Origin: Segnochrobactrum spirostomi
Lineage (GTDB): Bacteria > Pseudomonadota > Alphaproteobacteria > Rhizobiales > Segnochrobactraceae
Length of the DNA stretch: 32,000 nt
NCBI RefSeq assembly: GCF_009600605.1
Contig: NZ_VWNA01000001.1
Location: 1,434,490-1,466,489 of the forward strand
Reading direction: 5' to 3'
Positions 12,996-31,921 of the stretch are shown in pieces. The notes under the pieces are model-generated. The model was not told the DNA's origin. It saw only the letters and a list, made by a program, of their open reading frames with translations, and did no database searches. Positions within the stretch are counted from its first letter, which is position 1, and the number at the start of each line of letters is the position of its first letter. A program made the position numbers and the translations under genes.

Positions 12996-13022
12996 TGCGG
13001 GTTGCGGACGTCATGGCGGCGC

Positions 13023-13727: not shown

Positions 13728-14012
13728 TCAGCGCCCGGCCAGCGCCCCCGTCTTGGCGTCGATCAGGAGGCGCACAACCTCGCCGGTCGATTTCAGCACG
13801 GTCGCCTCGTAGACGAGCTTGCCCTTCACCTCGCAGAGCGTGAGGTCGAGCAATTCCCCGTTCACGACCTTCCGCACCGTGTTCGGCCGCACGACCGCCC
13901 CGGATTGGATCGCGGCCCGCTGGGCGGCGGCGTCGAGGCATGCCGCATGAGCCTCGCCGAATCCGGCGAAGACCATCAGCAGACAGAGAAGTGTGGCTTT
14001 GCCGTGAAACAT
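13728..14012 (-). CDS. Secreted PepSY-domain protein, first gene of the PepSY-RR-HK operon
   Basis: 94 aa with signal peptide MFHGKATLLCLLMVFAGFGEAHA. Short beta-rich PepSY-like domain (GELLDLTLCEVKGKLVYEATVLKSTGEVVRLLIDAKTG). This small-protein-plus-OmpR-type-TCS arrangement is common. Confidence 0.7.
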   Translation of the reverse strand: MFHGKATLLCLLMVFAGFGEAHAACLDAAAQRAAIQSGAVVRPNTVRKVVNGELLDLTLCEVKGKLVYEATVLKSTGEVVRLLIDAKTGALAGR

Positions 14013-14075
14013 GCGGCCGATCTAGCCCGCGTGCGCTGAACCCAATCTGAATGAGGCGGTTCCATGGCGGCGAAG

Positions 14076-14345
14076 TCAACCCGAGCCGATGCCGCGCGCG
14101 CTCACGACCCGGCGCGCGGCGATCCGTCCCCAGATCGCGATCGCCCCGCCGATTGCCGCGCCGAGCGAGGAGGCGACGCCGATCACCTCAGCCTGCGCCG
14201 GCGCGTCGAGGCCGAGCGCCGGCCCGAGCAGCGGCAACAGAGCCGCCAGGATCGCCAGCACGCCGCCCCACACGCCCTTCGAGGCGAACGGCGATTTGCC
14301 GCCGCTCAGCATCGCCTCGTCACCCACGTCTCCGCCATTCGTCAT
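14076..14345 (-). CDS. Holin-like small membrane protein (two TM segments, basic C-terminus)
   Basis: Last 89 codons of track ORF 14076..14873, whose upstream part is Arg-rich read-through inside the endolysin gene. ATG 14345..14343 overlaps the endolysin stop (ATGA). TM segments VWGGVLAILAALLPLLGPAL and VIGVASSLGAAIGGAIAIWG, then a tail RIAARRVVSARG. The function is inferred from topology and position only. Confidence 0.5.
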   Translation of the reverse strand: MTNGGDVGDEAMLSGGKSPFASKGVWGGVLAILAALLPLLGPALGLDAPAQAEVIGVASSLGAAIGGAIAIWGRIAARRVVSARGIGSG

Positions 14346-14986
14346 CGTGGATTTCCCCCTGGATTCGGTCGGGACGGCGGCGCAAAACCCGCCGCGTGCA
14401 AGGCGTGCAGAAAGGCCCGGGCATGGGACGCGATCAGCGCGGCCTGGTCGGTCCCGTTGACGACCCGCCGCGCGCCGACCCAGTCGCAGCGCCCCTCGGC
14501 GAGATAATCGCCAAGGCGGCGCCCGGTGAACCAGCCGCCTTCCAGCCCGCGCACCAGGATGCGCCCGGCGACGGCCGGCTTCAGGGCGCGATCGGGCTCC
14601 GATTCGAGATCGATCCCGAGCCGGCGGCCGACCGCGCGATAGTTCGCCCGGCCGGTGATCTGGACATATCCCCGCCCGCGATAGAGATAACCGTCTCCCG
14701 CCGCGATGTTGCCGAGGTCGCGCCGTCCCTCGTAGCGCCGGAAATAGGCGCGAGACCCGTGCTCCGCGATCGGCTCCAGGGTCGCCGCGCTCTCGTGGAA
14801 GGCGGTCGCGAGGCCATAGGCGAGCCAGGCCCGGGCGAGGGCCGCCGAGGGCGCCGCGGTCTCCGCCGTCCACATCCCGACGATCGCGACAAGCCCGGCG
14901 CGCTGGCGGGAATCGGGCCGACGGGCGAACGGGGCCGGCACGACCGCATCGAAAAATGCGGCCTCGTTCATCGTGCCCTCGTTCAT
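14342..14986 (-). CDS. Glycoside hydrolase family 19-type endolysin
   Basis: Track ORF 14342..15001 begins at GTG 15001. In-frame ATGs at 14986 and 14971 each have their own GAGG, and 14986 is chosen provisionally. GH19 signatures: AFHESAATLEPIAE (catalytic Glu contexts) and YLYRGRGYVQITGRANY. Confidence 0.85.
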   Translation of the reverse strand: MNEGTMNEAAFFDAVVPAPFARRPDSRQRAGLVAIVGMWTAETAAPSAALARAWLAYGLATAFHESAATLEPIAEHGSRAYFRRYEGRRDLGNIAAGDGYLYRGRGYVQITGRANYRAVGRRLGIDLESEPDRALKPAVAGRILVRGLEGGWFTGRRLGDYLAEGRCDWVGARRVVNGTDQAALIASHARAFLHALHAAGFAPPSRPNPGGNPR

Positions 14987-15000
14987 CGTGCCCTCGTTCA
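14962..15000 (-). repeat. 15-bp tandem repeat, 2.6 copies (minus-strand unit TGAACGAGGGCACGA), at the 5' end of the endolysin gene
   Basis: Minus strand reads GTG AAC GAG GGC ACG ATG AAC GAG GGC ACG ATG AAC GAG GCC, encoding (M)NEGT-MNEGT-MNE. Each unit carries a GAGG Shine-Dalgarno-like core plus a start codon. Confidence 0.95.
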
Positions 15001-15011
15001 CGGGCGCGGCC

Positions 15012-16523
15012 TCAATAGGTCTCGATCACGGCGGCGCCGAGCGCCCGCTTGGCGCCGCGCAACGGCTCCATCCCGCGCGTGCGGATCGCGGCCGTCCCCT
15101 CCGCCTGGAGGAAGATGCGACCGGCGCCCTCCCACGGCAGCGGGCAACGGTCGAGCCAGAGCTGCGCGCTGTTCTCCGCCCGGAATTCCGAGGGCGGCGC
15201 AGTGCCGCCGTTCACGATGTCGCCGAGGCTGTCGGCCGAGGCGGTGCCGATGCAGGCGAGGCGCGAGGCGCCGATGATGTGCACGCCCGCCCCGCGGCAC
15301 CGCCCATAGATCCCCGCGAGGTCGAGGGCGACGATGTCCTCGTGCACCGTCCACGTATTGTTGGAAGTCGAGGCGCCACGCCCGTTGTCGAAGCCCGAGC
15401 AGTGCAACGCGACCGCCCGCAGCGCGGCGCCGGAATAGGAATTGTGGATGTTGAAGCCGTCCTTGGTCGCCTTCGAGGCATCGCAATCGGCGAAGAAGAC
15501 GAGCCCCGCCTTCGATTGGATCGCGACATTGTCGGCCGGGTTCGCCGCGGTTCCGGCATAGCGGAAGGTGGCGCCGGCCGCCGTCACGATGCCGGGCGTC
15601 GCCCACGCCGCCGTATAATTGAGGACGAGCGCGCCCTGGTAGCCGCCCTCGAGATCGAAGCCGTCGCCCGCGCTCTCCCCGAGAAAGGCGAAGTTCTTCT
15701 GCGTACTGCCGCGGTGGGCGAAGTTGTCCACGTTCGAAAGGTAGGCCCGGGTGTTGGCGTCGCTCACGGCCACCGCATCGGCGCGGTGGACATAGAGCGT
15801 GCTGCCGACGAGCGCCCAGGTTCCCGGGTGGGCGTTGCAGGTCGCGGCATCGGCTACCTGACTGAGTTCTGTGTAGTGGCCGAAGCCGTCGAGGGCGACG
15901 AGGTCGAACACCCGGCCGGTGTTCGAGCGTGTGGCGGTGAAACAATTGCCGTAGGTCGCATCCCGCGCCCAGGTGAGACTGTCGAAGGGGCCGGTCACCA
16001 CCCGCCCGCCATAGGCGACGAAGACCATGTCCTGCTGCGGGCTGACGGCGTTCGAGTTGGAGAAGCCACGCGGCCGCTCGTAGGTGCCGGCCTTGATCTT
16101 GACGATCGCCGGGGTGCCAGCGGCGTTCGCGGCGCTGATCGCCTTGTGGATGGACAGGAACGGCGCCGCCGCGGTCGTTCCCGCGTTGGCGTCGCTGCCG
16201 GCCGCCCGATCGACCCAATAGACCGGCCAGCCGGCATAAGGCGAGCGCGTCGCGAAGGCCGCGGCAGGGCTCGCCGCGGTCCGGCACACGGCGGGGCCTC
16301 CGGGCCGGCGGAACAGCACGAGGTCCGTCAGATCGAGCACGGAATGGTCCCATCCGAGCCCCGCGGGCAGCGTGACGCTCTCGCCCTCGAGGCCGCGGAG
16401 CGTGTCCGCCGCGAGCGCGACCGGCGCCGCGCCGGCGAGGGCGGGCAGGATCTCGGTCCCGTCGAGAATCGACCGCAGCGGCATGTCGGCGCGGTTGCCG
16501 AGTTCCAGGATCGAACCGGTCAT
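15012..16523 (-). CDS. Right-handed parallel beta-helix (pectate-lyase fold) protein; putative spike or fibre, possibly a polysaccharide depolymerase
   Basis: Track ORF 15012..16751 has 76 Arg-rich leading residues. Start set at ATG 16523, preceded by GAGGTGACC. The N-terminal module is followed by the classic beta-helix entry motif SDANAGTTAAAPFLSIHKAISAANAAGTPAIVKIKAGTY. Repeated coil signatures follow (GDGFDLEG, KDGFNIHN, NNTWTVHED). 503 aa. Confidence 0.7.
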   Translation of the reverse strand: MTGSILELGNRADMPLRSILDGTEILPALAGAAPVALAADTLRGLEGESVTLPAGLGWDHSVLDLTDLVLFRRPGGPAVCRTAASPAAAFATRSPYAGWPVYWVDRAAGSDANAGTTAAAPFLSIHKAISAANAAGTPAIVKIKAGTYERPRGFSNSNAVSPQQDMVFVAYGGRVVTGPFDSLTWARDATYGNCFTATRSNTGRVFDLVALDGFGHYTELSQVADAATCNAHPGTWALVGSTLYVHRADAVAVSDANTRAYLSNVDNFAHRGSTQKNFAFLGESAGDGFDLEGGYQGALVLNYTAAWATPGIVTAAGATFRYAGTAANPADNVAIQSKAGLVFFADCDASKATKDGFNIHNSYSGAALRAVALHCSGFDNGRGASTSNNTWTVHEDIVALDLAGIYGRCRGAGVHIIGASRLACIGTASADSLGDIVNGGTAPPSEFRAENSAQLWLDRCPLPWEGAGRIFLQAEGTAAIRTRGMEPLRGAKRALGAAVIETY

Positions 16524-16525
16524 GG

Positions 16526-16648
16526 TCACCTCATGACGAGGGGCACGCCGCCGATGGCAAGGCGCCGCCCGGTGAGACAGAGCGAAAAGGGAGCGATCGG
16601 CACGGGCGTCGGCATCAGCCCGACGCCGAGCCCGAGCGAGACAATCAT
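16526..16648 (-). CDS. 40-codon hydrophobic micro-ORF between the spike-base and beta-helix genes
   Basis: MIVSLGLGVGLMPTPVPIAPFSLCLTGRRLAIGGVPLVMR. ATG 16648 is preceded by GGGAGG at 5 nt. Its stop (ATG AGG TGA CC ATG) lies inside the SD of the next gene, 2 nt before that gene's ATG, a termination-reinitiation geometry. No known family; it could be a non-coding spacer. Confidence 0.3.
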   Translation of the reverse strand: MIVSLGLGVGLMPTPVPIAPFSLCLTGRRLAIGGVPLVMR

Positions 16649-16662
16649 GGTCGCCTCCCGCC

Positions 16663-16929
16663 TCAGACGAGGCCGACGAGGTCGGACGCCGTCGAGGCGG
16701 TGCGGACCGCCGCGGCGCGGATCGGCAGCACGGTGCCCGCCGGCACCGCACGGAAGGTCGTCACCGCCCCCGTCGCATCGACGGCGACGACGTCGCCGCC
16801 GCCGCCGACATAAAGGCCGCGCACGAGCTCCGGCAGATCGGCGCCGTCGCTCGGAGCGATGGCGAAGAAGCGGGTCGCCGGCCCATGCGCGCTCGGCGCA
16901 TGGGTAGCGAAGCGATCCGATGCGGACAT
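16663..16929 (-). CDS. Small phage-particle protein resembling the RcGTA head-spike base protein (Rcc01079 family)
   Basis: Last 88 codons of track ORF 16663..17490. ATG 16929 is preceded by AGGAGGG. Sequence MSASDRFATHAPSAHGPATRFFAIAPSDGADLPELVRGLYVGGGGDVVAVDATGAVTTFRAVPAGTVLPIRAAAVRTASTASDLVGLV. Its size and the pattern FAI.PSD..DLP...R.LYVG..GDV.V......VTF..V.AG..LPIR match my recollection of that family. This needs an HMM check. Confidence 0.55.
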   Translation of the reverse strand: MSASDRFATHAPSAHGPATRFFAIAPSDGADLPELVRGLYVGGGGDVVAVDATGAVTTFRAVPAGTVLPIRAAAVRTASTASDLVGLV

Positions 16930-16985
16930 CGAACCCTCCTGGCTGGAATGAAAGGGGATGAGGGGCCGACTGTCGGGAACCGGCG

Positions 16986-17687
16986 TCACGCCGCCGGAAT
17001 GGTCGGCCGCAGGCAATGGATGGCGTAGCGGACCCGGCCGCCGGTAAAGCTGCCGGTCGTGGCACTGAGGCGCACCGGCGTTGGGGCATAGAAGGCCGTC
17101 GGTCCGATCACCCCGGCATTGGTCGAACCGGCCGCGGCACCGAGGCCGCCACCGAACTTGGCGGGCTCGCCGGCGATGCCGCAATCGTAGGCCGGCGCGC
17201 CGGTGACGGCGGTGAGGGTGCGCGTCGTCACAGCGAGCACGATCGCCCGCTCGGGGATCAGGGCCCCGCCGTCCGTCGCATCGCCGAGGAGGTCGACGTC
17301 GCCCTCGATCACCTGATGGAGCGTCGCCGCGCCGTGGGGCGAGACCGCGAGCGCCGTCACCCAGTCCTCCCCGTGGCGGACGGCGATCCGTCCCTCGTCG
17401 GCGATGAAGGCGATCATGCCGTCCCCGGCCGGCAGGAAGACCCAGTCGCCGCCGCTCCGCAAGGCGAGCTGCCCCGCCGCGCCGCTCCACGCCCCTCCGG
17501 CCCCGCTCGGCACGCCATAGAGGTCACCCTCGGCCGCGCTCGGCGGTGCACCGAGGCTCACGCTCGCGATGCGCGGCTGGGTGAGGGCATCGAGCCGCAG
17601 CAGCGCCTCGTTCACCGTGACGTGCTTCTGCGCCTGCGCCGCCGCGACGAGCGGCAGTCCGAGGCGGATCGTCGTCTCTTCAGCCAT
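16986..17687 (-). CDS. DUF2793-domain protein (candidate tail-fibre or baseplate-attached protein)
   Basis: Track ORF 16986..18023 is trimmed to ATG 17687 (MAEETTIRLGLPLVAAAQAQKHVTVNEALLRLDAL, the characteristic DUF2793 N-terminus). The start overlaps the g15 stop by 8 nt (ATGGCTGA). 233 aa. Confidence 0.7.
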   Translation of the reverse strand: MAEETTIRLGLPLVAAAQAQKHVTVNEALLRLDALTQPRIASVSLGAPPSAAEGDLYGVPSGAGGAWSGAAGQLALRSGGDWVFLPAGDGMIAFIADEGRIAVRHGEDWVTALAVSPHGAATLHQVIEGDVDLLGDATDGGALIPERAIVLAVTTRTLTAVTGAPAYDCGIAGEPAKFGGGLGAAAGSTNAGVIGPTAFYAPTPVRLSATTGSFTGGRVRYAIHCLRPTIPAA

Positions 17688-21585: not shown

Positions 21586-22017
21586 TTACGTGTCGATCCC
21601 GGGAAAGGCGAAGGCATAGGCGATCCGGCGTCGCCACCACGGCCCGAGCGCGACCTCGACGACGCCGATCCGCTCGGTCGCGTGGACCATGCGATCGGCC
21701 GTGACGAGGAGGCCGGCGTGCTTCGCCGGCAGCCCCTCCCGAAAGCGATAGAGCACCACGTCGCCCGGCTGCGCGGCCTCGATCGGCACCGCGATCATGT
21801 GGCGAAGGCCGCCGGCCGCCAGTGTCTCACGCCCGCCCGCCTCCGCCCAATCCGGGCTGTAGGCCGGGACCGCCTCCGGCTCCGGCCCGATCAGGTCCCG
21901 CCACAGCCCGCGGACGAGCCCGAGACAATCGGCACCGACGCCCTTCAGCGAGGCCTGATGACGATAGGGCGTGCCGATCCAGCCGCGGGCCGCCGCCACG
22001 ATCTCGTCGCGCGTCAT
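21586..22017 (-). CDS. GTA g14 homologue: NlpC/P60-family cell-wall peptidase
   Basis: 143 aa. WIGTPYRHQASLKGVGADCLGLVRGLW contains the catalytic Cys context; a downstream His is present (KHAGLLV...MVHA). Confidence 0.9.
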   Translation of the reverse strand: MTRDEIVAAARGWIGTPYRHQASLKGVGADCLGLVRGLWRDLIGPEPEAVPAYSPDWAEAGGRETLAAGGLRHMIAVPIEAAQPGDVVLYRFREGLPAKHAGLLVTADRMVHATERIGVVEVALGPWWRRRIAYAFAFPGIDT

Positions 22018-22044
22018 CGCCGTTGACCCTCGATCCGTCGTCCG

Positions 22045-22905
22045 TCAGAGGAGGCCGCTGCCGCTCGAGCCGCCCCGGGCGAACAGGGTGAAGTCGTTGC
22101 CCGGCACGAACGGGAAGCCGCGGAAATTGTCGCCGTCGGCGAATTTCGCCCGGCATGTCGCGAAGGTCTTGTCGCAGCCGGGCGTGACCCGCACCACGTC
22201 GCCCGTCGCAACGGCGCGGGCCGGCACCCGCCAAAGATCGAGAACGCCGCCGGCCGCATGCGCACGGATCTCGCTCGCCTGCCCCGCGTTCACCCCGCTC
22301 GCGAAGACGAGCCGGCCCGCGGTGAACCACCCCCCGGCGTGGGTCAGGCCCACGCACCGGAGCCGGTTCGCCCCTTCGACGGCCGTCACCGCCACCGTGA
22401 CCCGATGGGCATCGAGCGCGACCCCGCAGCGCCGGTCGCCGAGATCGGCGTCGCAGCGCGGCGCGATCACCCGCCCCATCGTCTCGTCGAGGGCCTGAGC
22501 GAGACCGCGCACCTCGGCGCGGAAGGCGCCGTCCGCCTGGGTGACTTCGCCGAGCGTGCCGACCCGAAGCCGCACCCGGTCCGCGACCGAGGTCCAGTCG
22601 ACCGCCCACAGCTCGACCCGCGCACCGTCATAGAGCCCCGCCGCGAGGTCGCCCTCGTCGAGGCTCGCGGCGGAGAGGGCGCCCGCGATGTCGAGCCCAC
22701 CCGTGGCGAAGCCGGACCCGGCCGCGTCGGCACTCGCGGAGAAGCCGCCGGCCGGATCGAAGCGCGTCCCGTCGAAGACGACGCTTTCGTCGTGATCGGT
22801 GAAGCCTCGCCGGGTACCGTCGGCGCGGACGATCAGCCAGCACCGGCAGAGCCGCGTCGCGCCCTCGGCGAGCCGCGCCGCGAGCCCGTCCGTCAGTGAT
22901 TTCAT
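22045..22905 (-). CDS. GTA g13 homologue: DUF2163 / BR0599-type baseplate hub protein
   Basis: Track ORF 22045..22974 trimmed to ATG 22905. MKSLTDGLAARLAEGATRLCRCWLIVRADGTRRGFTDHDESVVFDGTRFDPAGGF is the typical family N-terminus. The C-terminal ...CDKTFATCRAKFADGDNFRGFPFVPG motif is typical of the BR0599 C-terminus. 286 aa. Confidence 0.85.
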   Translation of the reverse strand: MKSLTDGLAARLAEGATRLCRCWLIVRADGTRRGFTDHDESVVFDGTRFDPAGGFSASADAAGSGFATGGLDIAGALSAASLDEGDLAAGLYDGARVELWAVDWTSVADRVRLRVGTLGEVTQADGAFRAEVRGLAQALDETMGRVIAPRCDADLGDRRCGVALDAHRVTVAVTAVEGANRLRCVGLTHAGGWFTAGRLVFASGVNAGQASEIRAHAAGGVLDLWRVPARAVATGDVVRVTPGCDKTFATCRAKFADGDNFRGFPFVPGNDFTLFARGGSSGSGLL

Positions 22906-22924
22906 GGCACCCGCCCTCGCCAAA

Positions 22925-23563
22925 CTAAGGTCTGATCTCCACCAGCGGCACGGAGGGGATCGCCCCCGCCGCAAAGGCCGAGAAGCTGATGTCGAGGCTG
23001 TCGGTGTCGAACCGCACCGGGCAATCGAAGCGGAAACCGGCGGTGATCGTCGCGCCGGGCGGCGGAACCGCGTCGGCGGCGAAGGTGACGATCCCGCTCG
23101 CCGCGTCGAGCGACCAGCGCGCCGCCGGCACCTCGGCCCCGTTCACCGCGACCCGCACCGTTCCGGCCACCGGCTTGAAGATGGTCCGCACATAAGGCGC
23201 GTCGGTCCCGTAGCGCTTGACGAGCTGGAAGCCGACCGTCGCCCCGTCGCCAAGCCCGATCCCCTGGTCCGTCGGTTCCGGCGCCGCGCTCGGCCGGCAC
23301 GACTGTTCGTCGCCGGGATCGCGGAAGCGGAAGCCGATCAGCCGTCCCCGCCGCTCCTCGAAGAAGGCGATGAGGACGGCGAGGTCGTCGAGGGTGCGCA
23401 CGCCGTAGCCGGCATTGAAGCGCCGGCGCGAGTGGACCCAGCGCGCATTGCGCTCCTCCCGCCCCGAGCCGAGCGTCACGATCTCGGTCCTGCGCTCCGG
23501 CCCGCCGGTCGCGCCGAGCGCGATGTCGACGGGAAAGCGAACCTCGTGGAAGGACGCGCTCAT
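22925..23563 (-). CDS. GTA g12 homologue: DUF2460 distal tail protein
   Basis: 212 aa; ATG preceded by GAGGAG. MSASFHEVRFPVDIALGATGGPERRTEIVTLGSGREERNARW matches the DUF2460 opening. Confidence 0.85.
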   Translation of the reverse strand: MSASFHEVRFPVDIALGATGGPERRTEIVTLGSGREERNARWVHSRRRFNAGYGVRTLDDLAVLIAFFEERRGRLIGFRFRDPGDEQSCRPSAAPEPTDQGIGLGDGATVGFQLVKRYGTDAPYVRTIFKPVAGTVRVAVNGAEVPAARWSLDAASGIVTFAADAVPPPGATITAGFRFDCPVRFDTDSLDISFSAFAAGAIPSVPLVEIRP

Positions 23564-23572
23564 GGAAGCTCC

Positions 23573-24172
23573 TCACAAGCCCCGCCGGCCGCGGGCGACC
23601 GTGCGGGCGATCAGGGCCGAGAGCTGCGCCTCGGAGCGGCGGAAGCTGTCGGCATCCGGCGTCGAGACGTTGAAGACGACCGAGAGCGCACCGCCGTCGC
23701 CGCCCGCCTTCACGCCGAGCCGGCCGTCGGCGCCGCGGGCGAGCGGCAGGATCGCCTCCGCGCCCGCCTCGCCGGCGACGCCGAGACCGCGTTCGAGCGG
23801 GAAGAAAGTCGGCGCCGCAACCACCCCACCGGCCGCGAACGGCCGCACCCGGCCGATGTTCACCGCCGCCCCAAGCCGCGCCGCGAGGAGCGAGCCGCCG
23901 GCGGCGCGGCCGAGGCCACCGAGGGCGGAGAGGCCTTGCGTCATCAGCGTTTCGAGCGGCGCGAAGGCCTTGTCGACGAGGCGCGAGGAAATCCTGAGCG
24001 CCGCGCTCGCGAGCACGCCGTCGAGCTGGCGGCCGGCGCCGACCGCGGATTTGAGCCCGCGTACCAGATCGCCCGAAAAGCCGCGGGCGAGGCCGCCGAT
24101 CCGTTCGAAGGTGCGCTCCAGCGCCCGCCCGCTGTCGGCGAGCCCGGTCACGTCGCTCTCGGTCTGCTCCAT
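23573..24172 (-). CDS. GTA g11 homologue: short tail tape measure protein
   Basis: 199 aa, Ala/Gly/Leu-rich and helical. Sits between the chaperone-like ORFs and the distal tail protein. The short length is typical of RcGTA-type clusters. Confidence 0.72.
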   Translation of the reverse strand: MEQTESDVTGLADSGRALERTFERIGGLARGFSGDLVRGLKSAVGAGRQLDGVLASAALRISSRLVDKAFAPLETLMTQGLSALGGLGRAAGGSLLAARLGAAVNIGRVRPFAAGGVVAAPTFFPLERGLGVAGEAGAEAILPLARGADGRLGVKAGGDGGALSVVFNVSTPDADSFRRSEAQLSALIARTVARGRRGL

Positions 24173-24205
24173 GGCGATCCCACCTCCGCGTCGATCGAAG
24201 CCCGC

Positions 24206-24403
24206 TCAGGTCGAGCGATCCGGAAAGCGGGCCATCAGGGTGTCGAGGGCGCGGCGGTCCGGCCCCGCCGTCCGGCGCGGGGCGAGCACCGCCGCGAGCT
24301 CCCGCGGCGTCATCCGCCAGAATGCCTCCGGCGCGAGCTTGAGCACGCCGAGGCCGAAGGCGATCAGGTCGTCCCAGGGCATCGCCGCGGGCGGTCGGGT
24401 CAC
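24206..24403 (-). CDS. GTA g10.1 homologue (Rcc01693-family small tail-assembly protein)
   Basis: 65 aa. GTG 24403..24401 overlaps the g10 stop (GTGA). MPWDDLIAFGLGVLKLAPEAFWRMTPRELAAVL is the characteristic motif. Confidence 0.7.
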   Translation of the reverse strand: MTRPPAAMPWDDLIAFGLGVLKLAPEAFWRMTPRELAAVLAPRRTAGPDRRALDTLMARFPDRST

Positions 24404-24747
24404 GCCCGCGGCCGCCGAGGGTTTTCGCCGCCGTCCTCCGCCCCACCGAAGGCGGCGGCGAGCAATGCGGTCGCGATCGCGGCAAACCCCGCCACGCCGT
24501 CGGCGCAGCCCATCCGCGCGACCTCCTCGTCGGCGATCGGGTGGCCCGCCCCGCGTAAGCCCGCGCCGAGAATGCGCACGAGGTCCGCGGCGGCGAGGCG
24601 GCCGGTCCCGAAGCGCTCCGCGAGCGCCACCAGATCGTCCGCCGCGAAGGCCGCTTCGAGCTCGGCGAGCGCACCGAGGGTCAGGCAGAGCGTGAAGGGG
24701 CGTCCGTCGAGCACCGCCTCGATCTCCCCGCGTCGTCGGTTCGCCAT
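24400..24747 (-). CDS. GTA g10 homologue (tail assembly chaperone-like gene transfer agent family protein)
   Basis: 115 aa. MANRRRGEIEAVLDGRPFTLCLTLGALAELEAAF... Sits immediately after the tube protein gene. Confidence 0.75.
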   Translation of the reverse strand: MANRRRGEIEAVLDGRPFTLCLTLGALAELEAAFAADDLVALAERFGTGRLAAADLVRILGAGLRGAGHPIADEEVARMGCADGVAGFAAIATALLAAAFGGAEDGGENPRRPRA

Positions 24748-24751
24748 CGGC

Positions 24752-25165
24752 TCACACCTCGCTGAAGGAGAGCGCCCCGGCGGATTCGAGGGCGAGGTCG
24801 AACGTCACCTCGCCGTCGTGCTCCCCGCCATATTCGAGCGCGGTAATCTCGAACGGCCCGGAAACGATGCCGAAATCGGGGATCGCGACCTGCCAGGTGC
24901 GCAGAACGTCGCCGAAGAAGAGCCCGCGCAGGGTCGCGTCGGAGGCAGCGTCGCGGAAGAGGCCGCTGCCGGAGATCGAGGCGCGCCGCACGCCCGCACC
25001 GGCGAGGAGTTCCCGCCAGCGTCCGGCCGAATCCGCATCCGTCGCATCGACCGGCTCGGCGTTGAAGGCGAGCTTGCGTGCCCGCAGGCCGGCGACGGTC
25101 GTGAAGGTGCCGTCGCCGGCCGCGTCGACCTTGAGGAGCAGGTCGCGGCCTTTCTGTGCGCCCAT
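24752..25165 (-). CDS. GTA g9 homologue: major tail (tube) protein, TP901-1 type
   Basis: 137 aa. GRDLLLKVDAAGDGTFTTVAGLRARKLAFNAEPVDATDADS...W is the typical motif pattern of this family. Confidence 0.88.
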   Translation of the reverse strand: MGAQKGRDLLLKVDAAGDGTFTTVAGLRARKLAFNAEPVDATDADSAGRWRELLAGAGVRRASISGSGLFRDAASDATLRGLFFGDVLRTWQVAIPDFGIVSGPFEITALEYGGEHDGEVTFDLALESAGALSFSEV

Positions 25166-25202
25166 CGTCGTGTCCCTTGCGGATAGTCGTACCGTGAAGA
25201 GG

Positions 25203-25625
25203 TTAGGCGGCCGGCTCGGTCAGCGCCCGGAAGGTCAGGTCCGCTTCGAAGGAGCGCCGATCGCGCCCCTCGGCGCTCGTCCGCTCGACGAGGGTGAGGT
25301 TGACGAGCCGATGGCCGTCGAGCGGCAGGCTCGCCGTGTGCAGCACCGCCTCGATGCGGCCGGCGATCGCCTGCGCCTCCTTGCGCCCTCCGGCACGCGA
25401 ACGCACCGCGAGGGTGAAGACGTGCGCCCGCACCGGCGCCTCGTCGGCATCGAGAACCGTCGTCCGCCAAGACCCGAACGCGACGAAGGGGTGCTCCGCC
25501 CCGCGCACCGGCGCGTCGTAGAGGCGCCCCAGCGGCACCAGCGCACCGAGGTCGGCGTCTGCCGCCAACGCCGCATGAACCGCGGCTTGCAGCGCAAACC
25601 CGGCGTCGATCGCGGCGTCCGTCAT
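25203..25625 (-). CDS. GTA g8 homologue: DUF3168 tail terminator / tail completion protein
   Basis: Track ORF 25203..26009 trimmed to ATG 25625, which overlaps the g7 stop (ATGA). 140 aa, MTDAAIDAGFALQAAVHAALAADADLGALVPLGRLYDAPV... Confidence 0.8.
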   Translation of the reverse strand: MTDAAIDAGFALQAAVHAALAADADLGALVPLGRLYDAPVRGAEHPFVAFGSWRTTVLDADEAPVRAHVFTLAVRSRAGGRKEAQAIAGRIEAVLHTASLPLDGHRLVNLTLVERTSAEGRDRRSFEADLTFRALTEPAA

Positions 25626-25942
25626 CGCCCCTCCTCCTCGGCGAGCCCGGTGCGATAGCCGGCGCCGGGCGCCGGGGCCTCGACCGCGAGCACCCGCAGC
25701 AGCCGCGCGCCCGCCACCAGCCGGTCGCCGCCGCGCACATCGACGGGCCGTCGGACCCGGAAGCGGTGGGTCGCGAGGCCGTCGCGCCGTCCGCCGCTCT
25801 CGCCCTCGGAGAGGCCGAGCGGCTCGAGCGCGGCCCAGGCTCCGCCGATGTCGCGCCAGGTGACGACCGCCCCGCCGCCGCCGTCGGCGCTCGTCTCCGC
25901 CCGCTCGATGCGGACGCGCAGCGCGAGGGTGCCCGCGCTCAT
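25622..25942 (-). CDS. GTA g7 homologue: head closure / head-tail joining protein
   Basis: Track ORF 25622..26041 trimmed to ATG 25942, which overlaps the g6 stop (ATGA). 106 aa with LRVRIERAETSADGGGGAVVTWRDIGGAWAALEPL...THRFRVRRPVDV pattern. Confidence 0.8.
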   Translation of the reverse strand: MSAGTLALRVRIERAETSADGGGGAVVTWRDIGGAWAALEPLGLSEGESGGRRDGLATHRFRVRRPVDVRGGDRLVAGARLLRVLAVEAPAPGAGYRTGLAEEEGR

Positions 25943-26493
25943 AGCCGCAGTTCCCGGAACGGTGCGACGAGCGCCTCGAAGGCGAGTGCCGCCGGTCCCG
26001 CGACGGCACCGAGCGCCGCCGCCTCTCGGTTCTCGAACCAATAGGCGACGAGCATCAGGATCGCCTGCTTCAGCGGCGCCGGCGCCGCCTCGGCCGTCGC
26101 GTAGCCGGTGTCGAAATCGATCTCGATCCCGTTCGGCGCCGCGGGTAGCCGGCCGAGCACGATCATGTCCGGCTCAGCCGGAGCGAGGCGCCAGTCGCCC
26201 TCCGGCACCGCGACCTCGACGCCGTCGGCATCGAACGCGGCGACGGCGGTGACGGCGCCGACCGGCCCCGGCCGCAGCCGCACCCGCCCGTCCCGCGGGA
26301 TCGCGCCGAGGACGCAGCGCCAGCCCTGCACCGCGAGGGCGCGGCGCGTCACCGCCTCGACATGCGCGCGGGCCGCCGCGACGAGGCCGGTGATGACCGC
26401 GTCCTCGTCGTCGCCGTCCACGCGCAGGTGCGCCTTCGCCGCCGCGAGCCCGACCGGCTCGAAGGCGGGCGGCCGGACCTGGAAGGTCGTCAT
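25939..26493 (-). CDS. GTA g6 homologue: gp6-like head-tail connector (adaptor)
   Basis: C-terminal 184 codons of track ORF 25939..27981. AKAHLRVDGDDEDAVITGLVAAARAHVEAVTRRAL is the gp6-like signature. The start is ATG 26493 or ATG 26505 (MGFAMTT), which I could not resolve. Confidence 0.8.
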   Translation of the reverse strand: MTTFQVRPPAFEPVGLAAAKAHLRVDGDDEDAVITGLVAAARAHVEAVTRRALAVQGWRCVLGAIPRDGRVRLRPGPVGAVTAVAAFDADGVEVAVPEGDWRLAPAEPDMIVLGRLPAAPNGIEIDFDTGYATAEAAPAPLKQAILMLVAYWFENREAAALGAVAGPAALAFEALVAPFRELRL

Positions 26494-26537
26494 GGCAAAC
26501 CCCATGGCAAGCCCCGCTTTGCGAGCAGGAACGCCGC

Positions 26538-27872
26538 TCAGCTCGCCGCGAAGGCGAGCAGCTTGATCGCCTCGAAGTCCTGCACGCCGCCGCCGACGCG
26601 CTTCGTCGTGTAGAACAGGACGTAGGGCTTGGCGCTGTAGGGATCGCGCAGCACGCGGACGCCGAGCCGATCGACGACCAGATAGCCGCGGCGGAAGTCG
26701 CCGAAGGCGATCGCCGCGCCGGCGGAGGCGATCGACGGCATGTCCTCCGCCTCGACGAGGGGGAAGTTCATCAGCGTCGCATCGGCCCCGATCGAGGCCG
26801 GCGGCTGCCAGAGATAATTGCCGTCGGCGTCCTTCAGCTTGCGGATCGCGGCTTGCGTCTTCCGGCTCATCACGAAGGTGGCGTTCTGGCGGTAGCCCGC
26901 CTTGAGCGCATAGACGAGATCGATCAGCACGTCGGACGCGCCCGTCGCCGGGAAGCCGGCGTTCACCCCCGTCACCAGCCGTCCGAGGCTGCCCCACGAC
27001 CAGCTCGCGTCCGCAACCTGCGGATAGGCGAGGAAGCCCTTCGGCTTGTTCACGCCGTCGCCGGAGACGAAGGCCGTTCCCTCCTGCTCGGCGAAGGCGA
27101 CCTCGACCTCCTCGGCGATCCATTGGTCGATGTCGACCGCGGCATCGTCGAGGAGAACGCCGGTCGCCGCCGGCATGGCGTAGAGCTCCATCGTCTGGAA
27201 CGAGAGCTCGGCAAGCGTCGGCCCGGCGGTCTGCGGTCTCGCCGCGGTCTCCGCCACCCAGCCGACCGCAGGTCCCGCGACCGAGAACGGCTTGCGGTAG
27301 ACCGAGCCCGAGACCTGGCGGCTGCCCGCGATGCGGCGGATCGGCGACAGGGCCGAGAGACGGCGCACGATCTCGCGCTCGGTCTCCTCGGGCACCAGAT
27401 AGCCGCCGTCGGCGGGCGAGCCGGCCGAGAGCGCCTTCGCCTCGATCCCCTTGAGGGCGTCGTCGCGCCCGGCCCGCACATAGGCCGCGAACGCCGCCTT
27501 GTGCTCGCGCCGCGCCTCGCCGGATCGGCGGTCGTCCTCCGCCGCGAGCCCCGGCCGGGCCGCCTTGAGGGCGAGGCCGTCGAGCCGCTTTTTGTGCTCG
27601 TCGAGCGCAGTGTCGATGCGGTCGAGCTTCTCGATCGTCAGCGGATCGGCCGACCGGCGCTCGATCTCGGCGAGCCGGGCGTCGTTCACCGCCTTGAAGC
27701 TCTCGAAGGCTTCCATGAAGCCGGCGAAGGCAGAGACCGGATCGCCGGGCCCTTCGAAAAGGGAGGCTCCCTTGCGCTCCGGCGCCCACTGCTGCCCGGG
27801 TGCCCCCTGGGTCCCGCCCGGCATCCCGCCGCTCTGTGCGTCGTGCATCCTCGTCGCTCCGTTTTGCATCAT
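26538..27872 (-). CDS. GTA g5 homologue: HK97-fold major capsid protein with N-terminal scaffold-like segment
   Basis: Track ORF 26538..28475 trimmed to ATG 27872, which overlaps the protease stop (ATGA). FESFKAVNDARLAEIERR coiled segment, then an HK97 capsid body (GGYLVPEE, LYAMPAATGVLLDDAAVDIDQWI, FAEQEGTAFVSGDGVNKPKGFL). 444 aa. Confidence 0.94.
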   Translation of the reverse strand: MMQNGATRMHDAQSGGMPGGTQGAPGQQWAPERKGASLFEGPGDPVSAFAGFMEAFESFKAVNDARLAEIERRSADPLTIEKLDRIDTALDEHKKRLDGLALKAARPGLAAEDDRRSGEARREHKAAFAAYVRAGRDDALKGIEAKALSAGSPADGGYLVPEETEREIVRRLSALSPIRRIAGSRQVSGSVYRKPFSVAGPAVGWVAETAARPQTAGPTLAELSFQTMELYAMPAATGVLLDDAAVDIDQWIAEEVEVAFAEQEGTAFVSGDGVNKPKGFLAYPQVADASWSWGSLGRLVTGVNAGFPATGASDVLIDLVYALKAGYRQNATFVMSRKTQAAIRKLKDADGNYLWQPPASIGADATLMNFPLVEAEDMPSIASAGAAIAFGDFRRGYLVVDRLGVRVLRDPYSAKPYVLFYTTKRVGGGVQDFEAIKLLAFAAS

Positions 27873-28444
27873 GTGAAGGTCGAAAGCCGCGCGGCGCCGC
27901 GCCGGAAGGCGTCGGCGAGCGCGCCCGAAACCGCCTCCGGACGCAGGGCATGGCGCACCGAGACGGGCGCGATGCGGGCATCGGGCAGCAGCGGGAAGGT
28001 GACGATCGAGATCTCCCAGAGGTCGATCTCGATCAGGTCGCGCCGCCCGCTCTTGGTGTCCCGGCTCGCCCGCACCGTGCGGAAGCCGATCGAGAGCCCG
28101 TCGACCGCCCCGGCATCGAGCAGCGCAGCGGCCTCCCGGGCGCGGGCGAGATCGGTGAGGAGAAGCCCCCGTACCCGAAGCCCGAGGCCGTCCTCGCCGA
28201 TCGCGAGCCAGCGGCCTATCGGCTCGGCCGGATCGTGCTGCCAGAGCAGCTTCACGCCGTCCGGCCCGCGTCGTTCGAGCGAGCGGCGGAAGGCGCCCGG
28301 CTTCACCCGATCGCCACCGAGGTCGGTGCGGTGGAACAGGCTGGCATAGCCCTCGAAGGTGCCGTCCGCATTGAGCCGCGACAGCCGCGCCGGCATCCGT
28401 TTCACCTCGAGGTCTGTCGGGCGAGGCCGCGGATAAATAATCAT
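27869..28444 (-). CDS. GTA g4 homologue: HK97-family prohead protease
   Basis: Track ORF 27869..28609 trimmed to ATG 28444 (GGAG at 7 nt; ATGA overlap with the upstream micro-ORF stop). ATG 28396 is an alternative start. GTFEGYASLFHRTDLGGDRVKPGAFRRSL ... LLWQHD ... DGLSIGF are family signatures. Confidence 0.88.
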   Translation of the reverse strand: MIIYPRPRPTDLEVKRMPARLSRLNADGTFEGYASLFHRTDLGGDRVKPGAFRRSLERRGPDGVKLLWQHDPAEPIGRWLAIGEDGLGLRVRGLLLTDLARAREAAALLDAGAVDGLSIGFRTVRASRDTKSGRRDLIEIDLWEISIVTFPLLPDARIAPVSVRHALRPEAVSGALADAFRRGAARLSTFT

Positions 28445-28578
28445 CGCGCGTCTCCGAGCGGGCGCACCCGGGCATCGCTCCGGCGCGGCATCAGCACCCG
28501 CGCCAAGCCGGCGGAGAAGGCGGCGAACACCGGCCGGTGGTCGGCGGCACGCGGTGCAAAGCGGAAGAACGGTGTCAT
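28441..28578 (-). CDS. 45-codon micro-ORF upstream of the protease gene
   Basis: MTPFFRFAPRAADHRPVFAAFSAGLARVLMPRRSDARVRPLGDAR. ATG 28578 is preceded by GGGGAGG at 6 nt. Its stop overlaps the protease ATG (ATGA). It is the tail of the otherwise Arg/Ser-rich 151-aa track ORF 28441..28896. The composition is not very protein-like, so confidence is low. Confidence 0.25.
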   Translation of the reverse strand: MTPFFRFAPRAADHRPVFAAFSAGLARVLMPRRSDARVRPLGDAR

Positions 28579-28615
28579 CGCGAGCCTCCCCAAGCTCTGA
28601 AGCCCGCACGCGCGC

Positions 28616-28804
28616 CTATTCGCGCTCCTTGAAGAGCGCGTTGAGCCGCGCGAGCTCGTTGACGAAATCGTTGAAGCGCCGGTTCGAGGCGGCGAGCTCC
28701 CGCAGCGCCCAGACGAGCAGCCCGCTCGAACTCGACGCCCACAGGAAGAGCGCCAGGTGCGCGAGGTCGCCGCGTTCGACGATGCTTTGCGTGACGGGGT
28801 CCAT
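28616..28804 (-). CDS. GTA g3.5 homologue (Rcc01685-family small head-formation protein)
   Basis: 62 aa; ATG preceded by GGAG. One hydrophobic segment (LAHLALFLWASSSSGLLVWAL) and a C-terminal amphipathic helix. It sits between portal and protease, as RcGTA g3.5 does. Confidence 0.6.
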   Translation of the reverse strand: MDPVTQSIVERGDLAHLALFLWASSSSGLLVWALRELAASNRRFNDFVNELARLNALFKERE

Positions 28805-28912
28805 GGGCGTCTCCGGGTGCTTCTCGTTCGTTCGCCCCCGAACGCCTCTCTCGCTTCGTATGGGTGTCGTCTTCGAACCGACCTCGCCGAACGCACCGTG
28901 CCGCGGCCTGCG

Positions 28913-30109
28913 CTAAGGCGCGTCTCGCCCGTCCGACCCGCGCCTTGGCCCGTAGCCGACCGCGGCCCGCTTCTCGTCCTCGGTCAGGAAGTCGGCCGCG
29001 GCAACGCGCGCCCACAGCGCCTCGCGCTCGGCCGACAAGGCCTCGATGGCGTCGGCGTCGAAGCCAAGGCGCAGATCCGGCCCGAAGGCGGGCCCGAGCC
29101 AGGCCCCGAGCGCCGCCGCGGTGCGCCCGACGAGCGGCAGCACCGTCTGTCGCCAGAACGCCCGGTTCGCCTCCTGATAGTTCGAATAGGTGTTGTCGCC
29201 GGGAATGCCGAGCAGCATCGGCGGCACGCCGAAGGCGAGCGCGATCTCGCGGGCCGCCAGGTTCTTCGCCTCGACGAAATCCATGTCCCGCGGCGACAGC
29301 GCCATGGTGCGCCAATCGAGGCCGCCTTCGAGAAGCAACGGCCGGCCTGCGTTGCGGGCCCCGGAGAAACCCTCTTCGAGCTCCTTCTTCAGCCGCTCGA
29401 ACTGGTCGTCGCTGAGATTGCCGCCCTCGCCGCCGGTATAGACCAGGGCACCCGAGGGCCGCGCCGAATTGTCGAGCAGCGCCTTCGCCCACGCCCCGGC
29501 CGCGTTGTGCACGTCGAGGCTCGTCAGCGCCGCCTCGATCGGGGCGAAGCCGTAATGGTCGTTGAGCGGATGAAACAGCGCGAGTTGCAGGATGGGGCTC
29601 AGCCCCGCTTCGTCGACGGAGAAGCGCACGGTGCGCCCGCCGACGCTGTAATCGTAGGCCTCCGGCCAGCCGTCGCGGCCGGGCACCACCTTCATCCGGT
29701 CAGGCCGCAGCCCATGGAGCTCGCGCACCTGCCCGTCGAGCGCCACCGCCTCGATATAGGCGTTGCCGGCGACGAGCAGGTGCCCGTAGACGGCCTCGAG
29801 GAAGTCGCGTCCCGCCTGACGCGGGCTCGGCCGCTCCAGAAGCGCGAGCAGCGGATGGCCCGGCCGCTCCTCGTCGCCCGCGTAGAGCAACCACGGCACC
29901 GACGCCGACGCCTCGGCCACCATCCGCACCGCCCGGTAGACGACCGGGTTGCGGGCATAGCCCTCACGGGCGAGCGCCGCATAATCCCGCGGCGTCCAGA
30001 CCGGCCGGCCCGGAACGGAAAAGGCGATCAGTCCGCCCGTCCGCGACGCCTTGCGCTCGACGGACGGCCGTTCGCGCGCCGCCGCCCGGCCGCGCCACCA
30101 GTCCAGCAT
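28913..30109 (-). CDS. GTA g3 homologue: HK97-family portal protein
   Basis: 398 aa. YARNPVVYRAVRMVAEASASVPWLLY, LLVAGNAYIE, and FVEAKNLAAREIALAFGVPPMLLGIPGDNTYSNYQEANRAFWRQTVLP are typical portal motifs. Confidence 0.95.
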   Translation of the reverse strand: MLDWWRGRAAARERPSVERKASRTGGLIAFSVPGRPVWTPRDYAALAREGYARNPVVYRAVRMVAEASASVPWLLYAGDEERPGHPLLALLERPSPRQAGRDFLEAVYGHLLVAGNAYIEAVALDGQVRELHGLRPDRMKVVPGRDGWPEAYDYSVGGRTVRFSVDEAGLSPILQLALFHPLNDHYGFAPIEAALTSLDVHNAAGAWAKALLDNSARPSGALVYTGGEGGNLSDDQFERLKKELEEGFSGARNAGRPLLLEGGLDWRTMALSPRDMDFVEAKNLAAREIALAFGVPPMLLGIPGDNTYSNYQEANRAFWRQTVLPLVGRTAAALGAWLGPAFGPDLRLGFDADAIEALSAEREALWARVAAADFLTEDEKRAAVGYGPRRGSDGRDAP

Positions 30110-30138
30110 CCCCGCCCCCCTTGCTTGATCCTATCGTC

Positions 30139-31488: not shown

Positions 31489-31921
31489 CCGGCGTCTCGG
31501 CCCGCGCCGACCGATCGAGGTCGATCAGCGTTTCCAGCGTCTTGGCGAGCACCGCGAGGGTTCTGGCGTCGCGCTCGCCCGTCGCGCCCGGCTCGCCGAC
31601 CCGCGCCTCGATCTCGGCGACCTGCCGCTCGAAGGCGTCGGTGAGGCGCTTGACCAAGGCGGCGCGGTCGGCCGGCTCGGCCGCACGCCCCGCCACAACT
31701 CCCCCCGCCTTGCCGGCCCCGGAGGCGCCGCCGCCGCGCTTCCGCCGCCGCGGCGGCCGCCCGGAAGCGCCCGCGTCGTTCGATTTGGTTTCGACCGGCG
31801 GCGCCCCCGCGAGGCGCCATCCGGCGGCTGCGGCATGGCGCACCAGCCGCGCCGCCGGCCAGCCCGACAATCCCGCGAGTTCGGCGATCGAGGCGCCCCC
31901 CGTCTCGAACAGAGCCTGCAA
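31409..31921 (-). CDS. GTA g1-like ORF (putative small terminase or packaging accessory protein); 5' end uncertain
   Basis: The 170-aa track ORF starts at a TTG. The frame has no stop between 31921 and the window end, so the true start may lie off-window. It has an HTH-like N-terminal segment (ASIAELAGLSGWPAARLVRHAAAAGW) and a basic Gly-rich linker (RPPRRRKRGGGASGAGKAGG). The C-terminal part is helical (LVKRLTDAFERQVAEIEARV, LAVLAKTLETLIDLDR). It sits directly upstream of TerL. Confidence 0.55.
   Translation of the reverse strand: MQALFETGGASIAELAGLSGWPAARLVRHAAAAGWRLAGAPPVETKSNDAGASGRPPRRRKRGGGASGAGKAGGVVAGRAAEPADRAALVKRLTDAFERQVAEIEARVGEPGATGERDARTLAVLAKTLETLIDLDRSARAETPDADEEGALDGLREDLARRLDRLRGAR

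Follow-up and report, generated by a model that had tools for sequence, protein, structure and literature searches.

Gene transfer agents (GTAs) are the textbook case of a virus that cells have domesticated into a device for exchanging genes, and the scattering of their genes over the chromosome is the question that we address here with a locus of the alphaproteobacterium Segnochrobactrum spirostomi and a comparison of 80 other loci. The agent of Rhodobacter capsulatus (RcGTA) is a multilocus system, in which the head-tail cluster is accompanied by rcc00171, rcc01079/80, rcc00555/6 and rcc01865/6 at separate loci (Hynes et al. 2016, PMC5026251); the same study noted the arrangement in phage RDJLphi1 (PMC5026251). 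In the stretch of 32,000 nucleotides (nt) of S. spirostomi DNA analysed here, to which we refer as the window (RefSeq assembly GCF_009600605.1, contig NZ_VWNA01000001.1, positions 1,434,490 to 1,466,489), six open reading frames (ORFs), designated A to F, continue directly from g15, the baseplate megatron gene of an RcGTA-type head-tail cluster (Table 1). A first-pass annotation, made from the letters of the sequence, had read them as apparent equivalents of the dispersed RcGTA genes, and the locus as either a single-locus GTA in an ancestral or less dispersed state or a GTA that had captured a phage adsorption and lysis cassette. We consider it probable, on the strength of family, motif and structure-model comparisons, that the block as a whole is the adsorption-and-release end of the RcGTA-type GTA of S. 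spirostomi.

The window has a G+C content of 70% and carries long spurious ORFs in all frames. Frame analysis of the G+C content at third codon positions (GC3 phase) places every real gene of the window on the minus strand, so that "after g15" means towards lower coordinates. A plus-strand reading of the block, with long ORFs at 11535-14039 and 17569-22026, was rejected on GC3 phase, these ORFs being artefacts of the high G+C content. When their coordinates were re-derived, the six ORFs and their spacings proved to be exactly those given in the first-pass annotation, which had named no strand. E, D and B agree at 100% identity with NCBI proteins of S. spirostomi, and the family matches described below bear out its statement that particle and lysis genes are contiguous with a complete RcGTA-type head-tail cluster.

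Tail fibre and head-spike base

The g15 product matches the NCBIfam GTA_megatron equivalog with 1715.5 bits (cutoff 800) over residues 1-1293, and carries the Pfam domains GTA_TIM, Phage-tail_3 and, at its C-terminus, Rcc01698_C, which is the fibre-binding domain. The product of A, the gene that overlaps its stop, matches Pfam DUF2793 (88.8 bits against a cutoff of 27; 2e-25) and aligns end to end with the fibre of roseophage R4C (PDB 8gtc_S; E=1.2e-38, residues 8-231 against 5-229). In R4C the gene for this fibre of 230 residues follows that for the megatron, and nine copies of the protein form three claw-like trimers on an RcGTA-like baseplate (PMC10276861). Given the DUF2793 match, the alignment with the R4C fibre and the fibre-binding Rcc01698_C domain of g15, A is by its sequence a tail fibre and, sharing DUF2793, a true member of the Rcc00171 family to which it had been likened.

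B matches over its full length the NCBIfam spike_base equivalog of the RCAP_Rcc01079 family (NF048002; 95.7 bits against a cutoff of 28), and over residues 5-86 the solved chain "Head spike base Rcc01079" (PDB 6tb9; E=2.9e-12). The curated equivalog and the solved chain together turn the proposed likeness to Rcc01079 into true family membership. Homologues of B occur in the head module of two phage contigs (L090 and L092; here and below we denote loci and contigs by L numbers and individual homologous proteins by P numbers), directly after the capsid gene, and a tblastn search of the phage collection with B found nothing.

A separate gene for a probable head-fibre anchor

In RcGTA, the head spike consists of a pentamer of Rcc01079 and one Rcc01080 head fibre (Bardy et al. 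2020, PMC7296036). Residues 2-10 of the latter (IALGLGLGL) form a five-point star, whose (iso)leucines occupy hydrophobic pockets in the five base subunits (PMC7296036). The micro-ORF C, which the first-pass annotation had left uninterpreted, carries this Rcc01080 anchor motif 14 nt past the spike-base gene: behind a Shine-Dalgarno sequence of its own (GGGAGG) it begins MIVSLGLGVGL, with the alternating hydrophobic residues V3, L5, L7, V9 and L11 and the spacers S/G/G/G. Of 1259 potential ORF starts, counted over all six frames of the window, only that of C fits the star motif (five alternating hydrophobic residues and at least three glycines). Star-like starts are also found next to spike-base genes elsewhere, in a Xanthobacter protein (L022, MSHLGPGLGL), in a phage head module (L090, MRIGLGLHI) and in an SGNH-esterase fibre (L091, MFIGLALG), and the neighbouring spike-base genes all pass the NCBIfam model.

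C stops at 40 codons, so that its star is not continuous with a body of about 300 residues, unlike that of Rcc01080, and this state is kept in three genomes. Across these, the start, the stop, the length and all five star positions of C are preserved at 23% nucleotide divergence. The ratio of non-synonymous to synonymous divergence (dN/dS) is 0.34 in the frame of C against 1.5 and 2.6 in the other two frames, a value close to that of E (0.32) and above those of g15 (0.16) and D (0.15). The same chain, with the 40-codon ORF in it, was called independently in four metagenome contigs (L086-L089) that represent two related organisms, and this common arrangement argues that the split anchor is not an assembly error. 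C appears to be under purifying selection, and we take it to be a translated, functional anchor peptide. As a separate observation, C differs from its counterpart in L088 (10282-10404) at 4 of 123 nt, with the flanking B and D at about 10%, and from that in L086 (10281-10403) at 28 of 123; the low divergence from L088 may reflect local recombination between lineages or small-sample noise.

The beta-helix protein and its relation to the anchor

The large protein D matches the PHROG family phrog_16653 "hydrolase" (1e-87, residues 40-492), and the phage genes that match it are annotated as hydrolase, minor tail or tailspike. In Pfam it has a weak match to DUF1565 and none to PF12218. Its relatives comprise 1082 representatives in a library of 1.84 billion proteins, and no match emerged when viral contigs were scanned with the single protein D. 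The AlphaFold model of D (mean predicted local distance difference test, pLDDT, of 85.6) is a right-handed beta-helix with 43 disordered residues at the N-terminus, and Foldseek searches with this model retrieve glycoside hydrolases, phage tailspikes and capsule depolymerases. Model and searches substantiate the beta-helix fold ascribed to D at first pass, and on the same grounds we regard the protein as a putative polysaccharide depolymerase. Searches of the PDB and of PHROG with its N-terminal module (residues 1-76) and with the similar N-termini of the homologues P0127 and P0176 gave nothing usable.

RcGTA has a beta-helix depolymerase of its own, TspA (rcc02623), a detachable enzyme directed at biofilm and encoded at a separate locus; it has 763 residues, an N-terminal beta-sandwich and a PF12218-like cap, and its homologues were reported to be absent outside the Rhodobacterales (bioRxiv 10.64898/2026.07.19.739414). 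Among homologues of D, the star motif stands at the N-terminus of 7 of 145, against none of 119 control proteins; examples are P0244 (MALGLGLGLALGL) and P0256 (MRLGLGLDL), and another of the seven, P0179, resembles a signal peptide. P0244 adjoins a spike_base gene in a phage-like contig. These star-bearing homologues, with P0244 beside a spike base, imply that beta-helices of the D type serve elsewhere as head-spike fibres with the anchor fused to them.

For S. spirostomi, a tentative and on the whole unlikely proposal is that of a two-piece head spike, in which the free peptide C plugs the base pentamer and its C-terminal tail recruits D non-covalently. Were it true, anchor and receptor-destroying body could be exchanged independently, and the particle would be the first GTA armed with a depolymerase in a group other than the Rhodobacterales, beyond which TspA homologues have been reported missing. 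It is also possible, if somewhat doubtful, that C is only a scar, left behind as the first 40 codons of an older head-fibre gene when the gene of an incoming phage tailspike, D, replaced its body; D would then act on the baseplate or free, like the detachable TspA, and the spike would be bare or plugged by a functionless peptide. Such an origin is favoured by the N-terminus of D, which is like those of P0127 and P0176 and unlike those of the star-bearing homologues, by the different frames and separate Shine-Dalgarno sequences of C and D, and by the residues that follow the star in C (PVPIAPFSLCL), which loosely resemble the linker and body start of fused homologues such as P0244, as a truncated 5' end would; TspA, moreover, is a GTA precedent for a loosely bound beta-helix depolymerase on the baseplate. 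A functionless remnant is, however, hard to square with the purifying selection seen when C is read in its proper frame (a dN/dS of 0.34, compared with more than 1.5 in the other frames), with the preservation of its start, stop, length and five star positions at the divergence given above, or with the invariance of the C/D junction, ribosome-binding site of D included, which is what coupled translation predicts.

A third way of relating the two genes, a programmed -1 frameshift that would join C and D into one polypeptide and restore an anchor-plus-beta-helix fibre like P0244, was considered and rejected as very improbable, there being no conserved slippery site. The frame of D is indeed open upstream through the whole of C and is the -1 frame relative to it, fused homologues do exist, and a frameshift between rcc01079 and rcc01080 was once proposed (Hynes et al. 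2016, PMC5026251). Yet an open upstream frame is to be expected by chance at 70% GC, and its codon statistics are non-coding; the junction has no X XXY YYZ heptamer, and L086 and L088 do not share its single T-run, CCCTTTT. D itself starts 2 nt past C, in the -1 frame, with a conserved Shine-Dalgarno sequence and ATG of its own.

Lysis genes

E, with a GTG start at 15001, has 219 amino acids (aa; 214 aa in the NCBI annotation) and no visible signal peptide or transmembrane (TM) segment. It matches the endolysin family phrog_181 (2.3e-39) and, in the PDB, lytic enzymes as well as GH19 endolysins and chitinases (best 9eoi, 3.9e-13; also 4ok7); most of its homologues carry a precomputed PF00182 assignment, and its sequence contains YRGRGYVQITGRANY, which has the pattern RGRGxxQITGxxNY. 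On balance, this evidence places E in the GH19 family. Its first-pass description as a GH19 endolysin is carried by the PDB and PHROG endolysin matches, with a Pfam GH19 score that stays below threshold. E was also considered as an orthologue of Rcc00555, which is embedded among ccm genes, and this was rejected: the GH19 homologues fetched from Rhodobacterales (P0033, P0036 and P0041) are not next to ccm. The small partner proteins of these three have a single TM segment and a coiled coil and are not related to F.

The product of F has two hydrophobic stretches and, after them, a basic C-terminus (RIAARRVVSAR), and its clear homologues match PHROG holins (phrog_34682 at 3.9e-9, phrog_4712 and phrog_297), which is the best support for giving it this function. 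We therefore describe F as probably holin-like, as had been suggested, from its topology, its position next to the endolysin and its homologues; a strong family match of its own does not come to the aid of this assignment. Immediately before the start of F, at 14346-14359 (-), stands AGGGGGAAAT, which contains GGGGAAAT. In rcc01079 the latter string has been pointed out as a potential signal for -1 frameshifting (Hynes et al. 2016, PMC5026251); in front of F it is most simply the Shine-Dalgarno sequence of that gene.

Organisation of the locus

The head-tail cluster upstream of the block comprises, in order, a g1-like ORF, the large terminase, portal, prohead protease, major capsid and connector genes, tail genes, the tape measure, the distal tail and hub genes, and g14, an NlpC/P60 peptidase gene. 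NCBIfam matches in it include portal_HK97, proheadase_HK97, major_cap_HK97, the head-tail connector, the Rcc01695-family distal tail protein and the baseplate hub, and Pfam contributes Terminase_6N/6C and NLPC_P60, so that the colinear g2-g14 set is present in the window; the related contig L086 has the same head-tail gene order.

Table 1. Genes of the S. spirostomi GTA locus, in their order along the minus strand; positions are those of the window
Feature	Position	Strand	Remarks
RcGTA-type head-tail cluster	21586..31921	(-)	upstream of block; Pfam/NCBIfam matches
g1-like ORF	31409..31921	(-)	no Pfam/NCBIfam match
Tape measure, 199 aa	23573..24172	(-)	short RcGTA type; RcGTA_tape 148 bits, under cutoff of 220
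g15, baseplate multidomain protein megatron, 1297 aa	17680..21573	(-)	NCBIfam GTA_megatron equivalog
A, DUF2793 tail-fibre protein, 233 aa	16986..17687	(-)	8-nt overlap with g15 stop
B, Rcc01079-family head-spike base, 88 aa	16663..16929	(-)	56-nt gap after A
C, head-fibre anchor micro-ORF (predicted), 40 codons	16526..16648	(-)	14-nt gap after B
D, right-handed beta-helix protein, 503 aa	15012..16523	(-)	2-nt gap after C
E, GH19-type endolysin (on balance), 219 aa	14342..15001	(-)	10-nt gap after D
F, holin-like two-TM protein (predicted), 89 aa	14076..14345	(-)	ATGA overlap with E stop codon
PepSY-like secreted protein	13728..14012	(-)	module boundary, first conserved gene of host flank; Pfam PepSY weak

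The G+C content and GC3 of the block are host-like, with no compositional anomaly. Between 13000 and 22500 we found neither a consensus sigma-70-like promoter nor an intrinsic terminator, and a CtrA box (TTAA-N7-TTAA) was sought and not found. The overlaps, the short gaps and the lack of consensus promoters and terminators suggest that the block is probably co-transcribed with g1-g15. Downstream, on the same strand and with short gaps, the host flank encodes the PepSY-like protein, an OmpR-type response regulator, a histidine kinase, a 17-kDa-antigen lipoprotein, CcmI, CcmE, CcmF and CcmH, and beyond CcmH on the minus strand lie DegP, a second two-component pair and GlnE. The spacer of 63 nt between F and the PepSY gene (14013-14075) is identical to that of L086 at 59 of its 63 positions, next to genes with a synonymous divergence of 0.2-0.35; it folds no better than shuffled sequence, and the two-component operon may have a promoter or operator within it.

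The slot downstream of g15 in other GTA loci

The 80 g15 loci of the comparison set were drawn from species-representative genomes with flanks of 10 kb and searched with the window proteins and iterated profiles; 54 of them offer the full 10 kb downstream of g15. The response regulator gene of the host flank follows g15 in 45 of these 54, at 0.6-9.5 kb (median 1.9 kb), and ccm genes follow too in 33; counted over all 80 loci, the response regulator is present together with its kinase in 49. Loci without the downstream response regulator are mostly from Rhodobacterales, and most of the linked ones from Hyphomicrobiales. In the window the linked block after the GTA cluster runs from the PepSY gene through the response regulator, histidine kinase and 17-kDa antigen genes to ccmI-E-F-H (7081-14012, minus strand), and in 15 other g15 loci, too, a PepSY gene precedes that of the response regulator, irrespective of what the slot holds. 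On one side g15, and on the other the two-component and ccm genes, are conserved anchors, and the interval that they enclose is a slot of variable content.

The contents of this slot vary around a common theme. Of the 80 loci, 42 have a DUF2793 gene after g15, and peptidoglycan hydrolases recognised by Pfam belong to unrelated families: GH108 (sometimes with CHAP) with PG_binding_3, CHAP with PG_binding_1, Amidase_2, Peptidase_M15_3 and SleB-like. In 27 loci a two-TM domain like F is encoded downstream of g15; it either forms the C-terminal end of GH108/CHAP endolysins or stands, in loci of the Rhizobiaceae and Phyllobacteriaceae type, as a lone ORF of 68-96 aa right after g15. The lone gene (motif KPWYLSRTIW) lies 20-130 nt past g15 in a slot without an endolysin or fibre gene (L009, L010, L023, L036, L040, L043, L048, L050, L055, L057, L059, L064, L069 and L075). 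Endolysins with a C-terminal TM domain are encoded in L006, L007, L014 and L016 (an ORF of 457 aa about 50 nt past g15), and further ones at L022:16977-17837, L047:4069-4842 and L004:16779-17756. Their architectures are CHAP+GH108+PG_binding_3, GH108+PG_binding_3 and CHAP+PG_binding_1, the TM domain being F-like in the GH108 proteins. The E/F pair of the window, with its ATGA overlap, looks like a split form of such an endolysin-TM fusion.

The remaining genes of the block are seldom met with. A hidden Markov model built from 120 homologues of E detects no E-like GH19 gene after g15 in any of the 80 loci, C and D are likewise found in none, and B is found in two (L022 and L029). Hence, B, C, D and the GH19 domain are not core parts of the GTA. 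The block predates the split of the three sampled genomes (synonymous divergence of about 0.33), and the slot for fibre and lysis genes, being widespread, is probably old. This suggests that the slot was filled with B, C, D and the GH19 domain in particular lineages, from phage sources. The comparison suggests that the alternatives put forward at the outset, ancestral or captured, both apply, each to a part: the former to the fibre and lysis slot, a DUF2793 fibre and varied lysis genes being usual after g15, and the latter to the rare B, C, D and GH19 components.

Several other fillings of the slot deserve description. A parallel to the S. spirostomi block is seen in Xanthobacter sp. KR7-225 (L022:14570-18341), where g15 is followed by an A-like fibre (58% identity), a spike base, a protein of 429 aa that begins MSHLGPGLGL and a GH108-TM endolysin; at its tail end, a TM/coiled-coil protein of 131 aa and a lipoprotein of 72 aa (LAAC lipobox) look like a spanin pair. 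In Ancylobacter (L026:14728-16146 and L027) an SGNH/GDSL esterase-like protein follows the DUF2793 fibre, in the place of the receptor-binding protein, and another follows the spike-base gene at L091:6270-7430, with a star-like N-terminus; their sequences suggest that esterase-type head or tail fibres exist. Rhizobium-type loci (L057:14052-14924, L059, L063 and L048) have a two-gene insert between the holin-like gene and the response regulator, coding for an AbrB/MazE-like protein of about 115 aa and a protein of 170 aa, possibly a toxin-antitoxin pair. In Rhodobacterales-type loci (L029:8620-8885, L045:15019-15306 and L053:7715-8065), a conserved small protein is encoded after the fibre or spike-base gene; it has a cytoplasmic helical N-terminal part, one C-terminal TM segment and the motif EFEE(I/L)LARAA(E/Q)(Q/E)GARRALAD.

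The block as a probable part of the GTA

Taken together, the assignments allow us to propose how the block might work, with binding partners and enzymatic activities that we infer from the families. Trimers of A would form the tail fibres, held by the fibre-binding domain at the C-terminus of the megatron, and B would form pentameric spike bases at the capsid vertices. C, as a separately translated peptide of 40 residues, would place the five hydrophobic side chains of its Val/Leu-Gly repeat into the pockets of the B pentamer. D, carried on the head spike through C or else on the tail, would act as a depolymerase that clears capsule or biofilm matrix for the particles. At the end of production, F is predicted to open holes in the inner membrane, letting the cytoplasmic, muramidase- or chitinase-like E reach the wall, and the two would lyse the producer cell and release the particles.

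A number of observations count against this reading or parts of it. Almost none of the 80 other g15 loci contains B, C, D or GH19. The tight same-strand spacing runs on into the clearly cellular two-component and ccm genes, so that spacing by itself is weak evidence for a single transcription unit. The dN/dS value of C rests on just 14 non-synonymous and 14 synonymous changes, and at 70% GC intact ORFs easily persist by chance. The N-terminal module of D (MTGSILELG...LDGTEILP) differs from the star anchor and is common to P0127 and P0176; with C and D in different frames and no conserved slippery site between them, attachment of D through C may be absent altogether. As to the lysis genes, the match of E to Pfam GH19 (PF00182) reaches 20.1 bits, under the gathering cutoff of 25.5, and covers residues 103-139 only; F has no significant family match in Pfam or NCBIfam and in PHROG matches only phrog_29088, of unknown function, at 7e-4; and no spanin candidate was found in the window.

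The rarity of the block after g15 (B in 2, and C, D and GH19 in none of the 80 loci) could also mean that it is a phage-derived cassette or prophage remnant that landed beside the GTA, is not used by it and is independently regulated; the closest characterised relatives of D are phage genes, and pairs of GH19 and small-protein genes lie away from GTA clusters in Paenirhodobacter. We judge this quite improbable, as A overlaps g15 by 8 nt and is of the fibre type that is the cognate partner of the megatron, integrase, repressor and replication genes and repeats are all lacking, GC and GC3 are the same as in the host, three genomes keep the block and show purifying selection on it, and the slot holds fibre and lysis genes in most other loci. 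That the whole cluster is a functional or defective prophage and not a GTA is hardly credible: its structural genes all have phage homologues, and roseophages such as R4C possess a megatron and fibre module, but the cluster has the megatron equivalog, the short tape measure of RcGTA type (199 aa) and the full g2-g15 order, the 32 kb hold no lysogeny or replication genes, and its position beside the same two-component and ccm genes is kept across many genera of Hyphomicrobiales, which indicates vertical inheritance. The adsorption-and-release end of a GTA hence remains our preferred account of the block. To speak of a single-locus GTA, as the first-pass annotation did, goes too far: no regulator such as gafA is seen in the window, where none was searched for.

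Comparison with known systems and implications

The idea of a single-locus, less dispersed GTA is already published. Shakya et al. 2017 (PMC5721377) described 22 large clusters whose 3' end carries a homologue of rcc00171, with rcc00555 next to it in 6 of them, and proposed that the genome of the GTA had originally formed a single locus, calling their own evidence anecdotal (PMC5721377). Their clusters, unlike the present one, come without reported head-spike genes, anchor micro-ORF or depolymerase (PMC5721377). Four features appear not to have been described before: head-spike genes inside the GTA cluster, the anchor as an independent, conserved micro-ORF, a beta-helix depolymerase within the cluster in an order reported to lack TspA homologues, and an F-like holin domain conserved at the 3' end of the GTA clusters in Hyphomicrobiales.

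The comparison also bears on how the dispersed state arose. In Rhodobacterales, the lysis pair rcc00555/6 lies between cycJ (ccmE) and the haem lyase gene (ccmF) (PMC5026251), inside the ccm cluster, and in Hyphomicrobiales the fibre and lysis genes normally occupy the slot between g15 and the two-component/ccm genes. The g15-ccm linkage and the lysis pair inside ccm hint at an ancestral GTA-lysis-ccm neighbourhood, and would fit an ancestral order of head-tail, fibre, lysis and ccm genes that was later broken apart. Beyond this, the split anchor micro-ORF offers a natural experiment on the attachment of the head fibre to its base, and the in-cluster beta-helix is a candidate depolymerase for GTAs without TspA. 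Current views are refined by these findings and not overturned, and S. spirostomi is a tractable model organism in which to pursue them.

With RcGTA, the S. spirostomi locus shares the head-tail cluster with its megatron, the DUF2793 relation of A to Rcc00171, the Rcc01079 family of B and the Rcc01080 anchor motif of C; as in the RcGTA head spike (PMC7296036), B matches the solved base, and the star of C stands directly after the start methionine and is encoded immediately past the base gene. The means of release, an endolysin and a small membrane protein, are alike too, E and F being likened to Rcc00555/6 by function only. It departs from RcGTA in that these genes are contiguous with g15, that A is short (233 aa against 371 aa in Rcc00171), that the anchor is a separate gene of 40 codons whereas the RcGTA star heads a fibre of 325 residues, and that the large protein after the anchor is a beta-helix of another family, encoded by a separate ORF in a different frame. 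The baseplate of R4C (vB_DshS-R4C; Huang et al. 2023, PMC10276861; PDB 8GTC) resembles that predicted here in its hub, megatron and fibre of about 230 aa encoded directly after the megatron, but R4C is a replicating phage, for which neither head-spike nor lysis genes have been reported immediately behind the fibre gene.

D is like TspA a GTA-associated, right-handed beta-helix that is putatively carbohydrate-active, and might be its functional analogue; compared by description, it differs in that its residues 1-43 are disordered in the model, in lacking PF12218 and in belonging to a phrog_16653/DUF1565-like family. In fold it resembles phage tailspikes and capsule depolymerases such as LKA1 gp49 and the Klebsiella K1 lyase, and E belongs with the GH19 phage endolysins in sequence family (SPN1S endolysin, 4OK7); unlike those phage enzymes, D and E are encoded in a chromosomal, vertically inherited GTA locus. 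In outline, the locus is an ordinary GTA 3' module with an unusual split head-spike.

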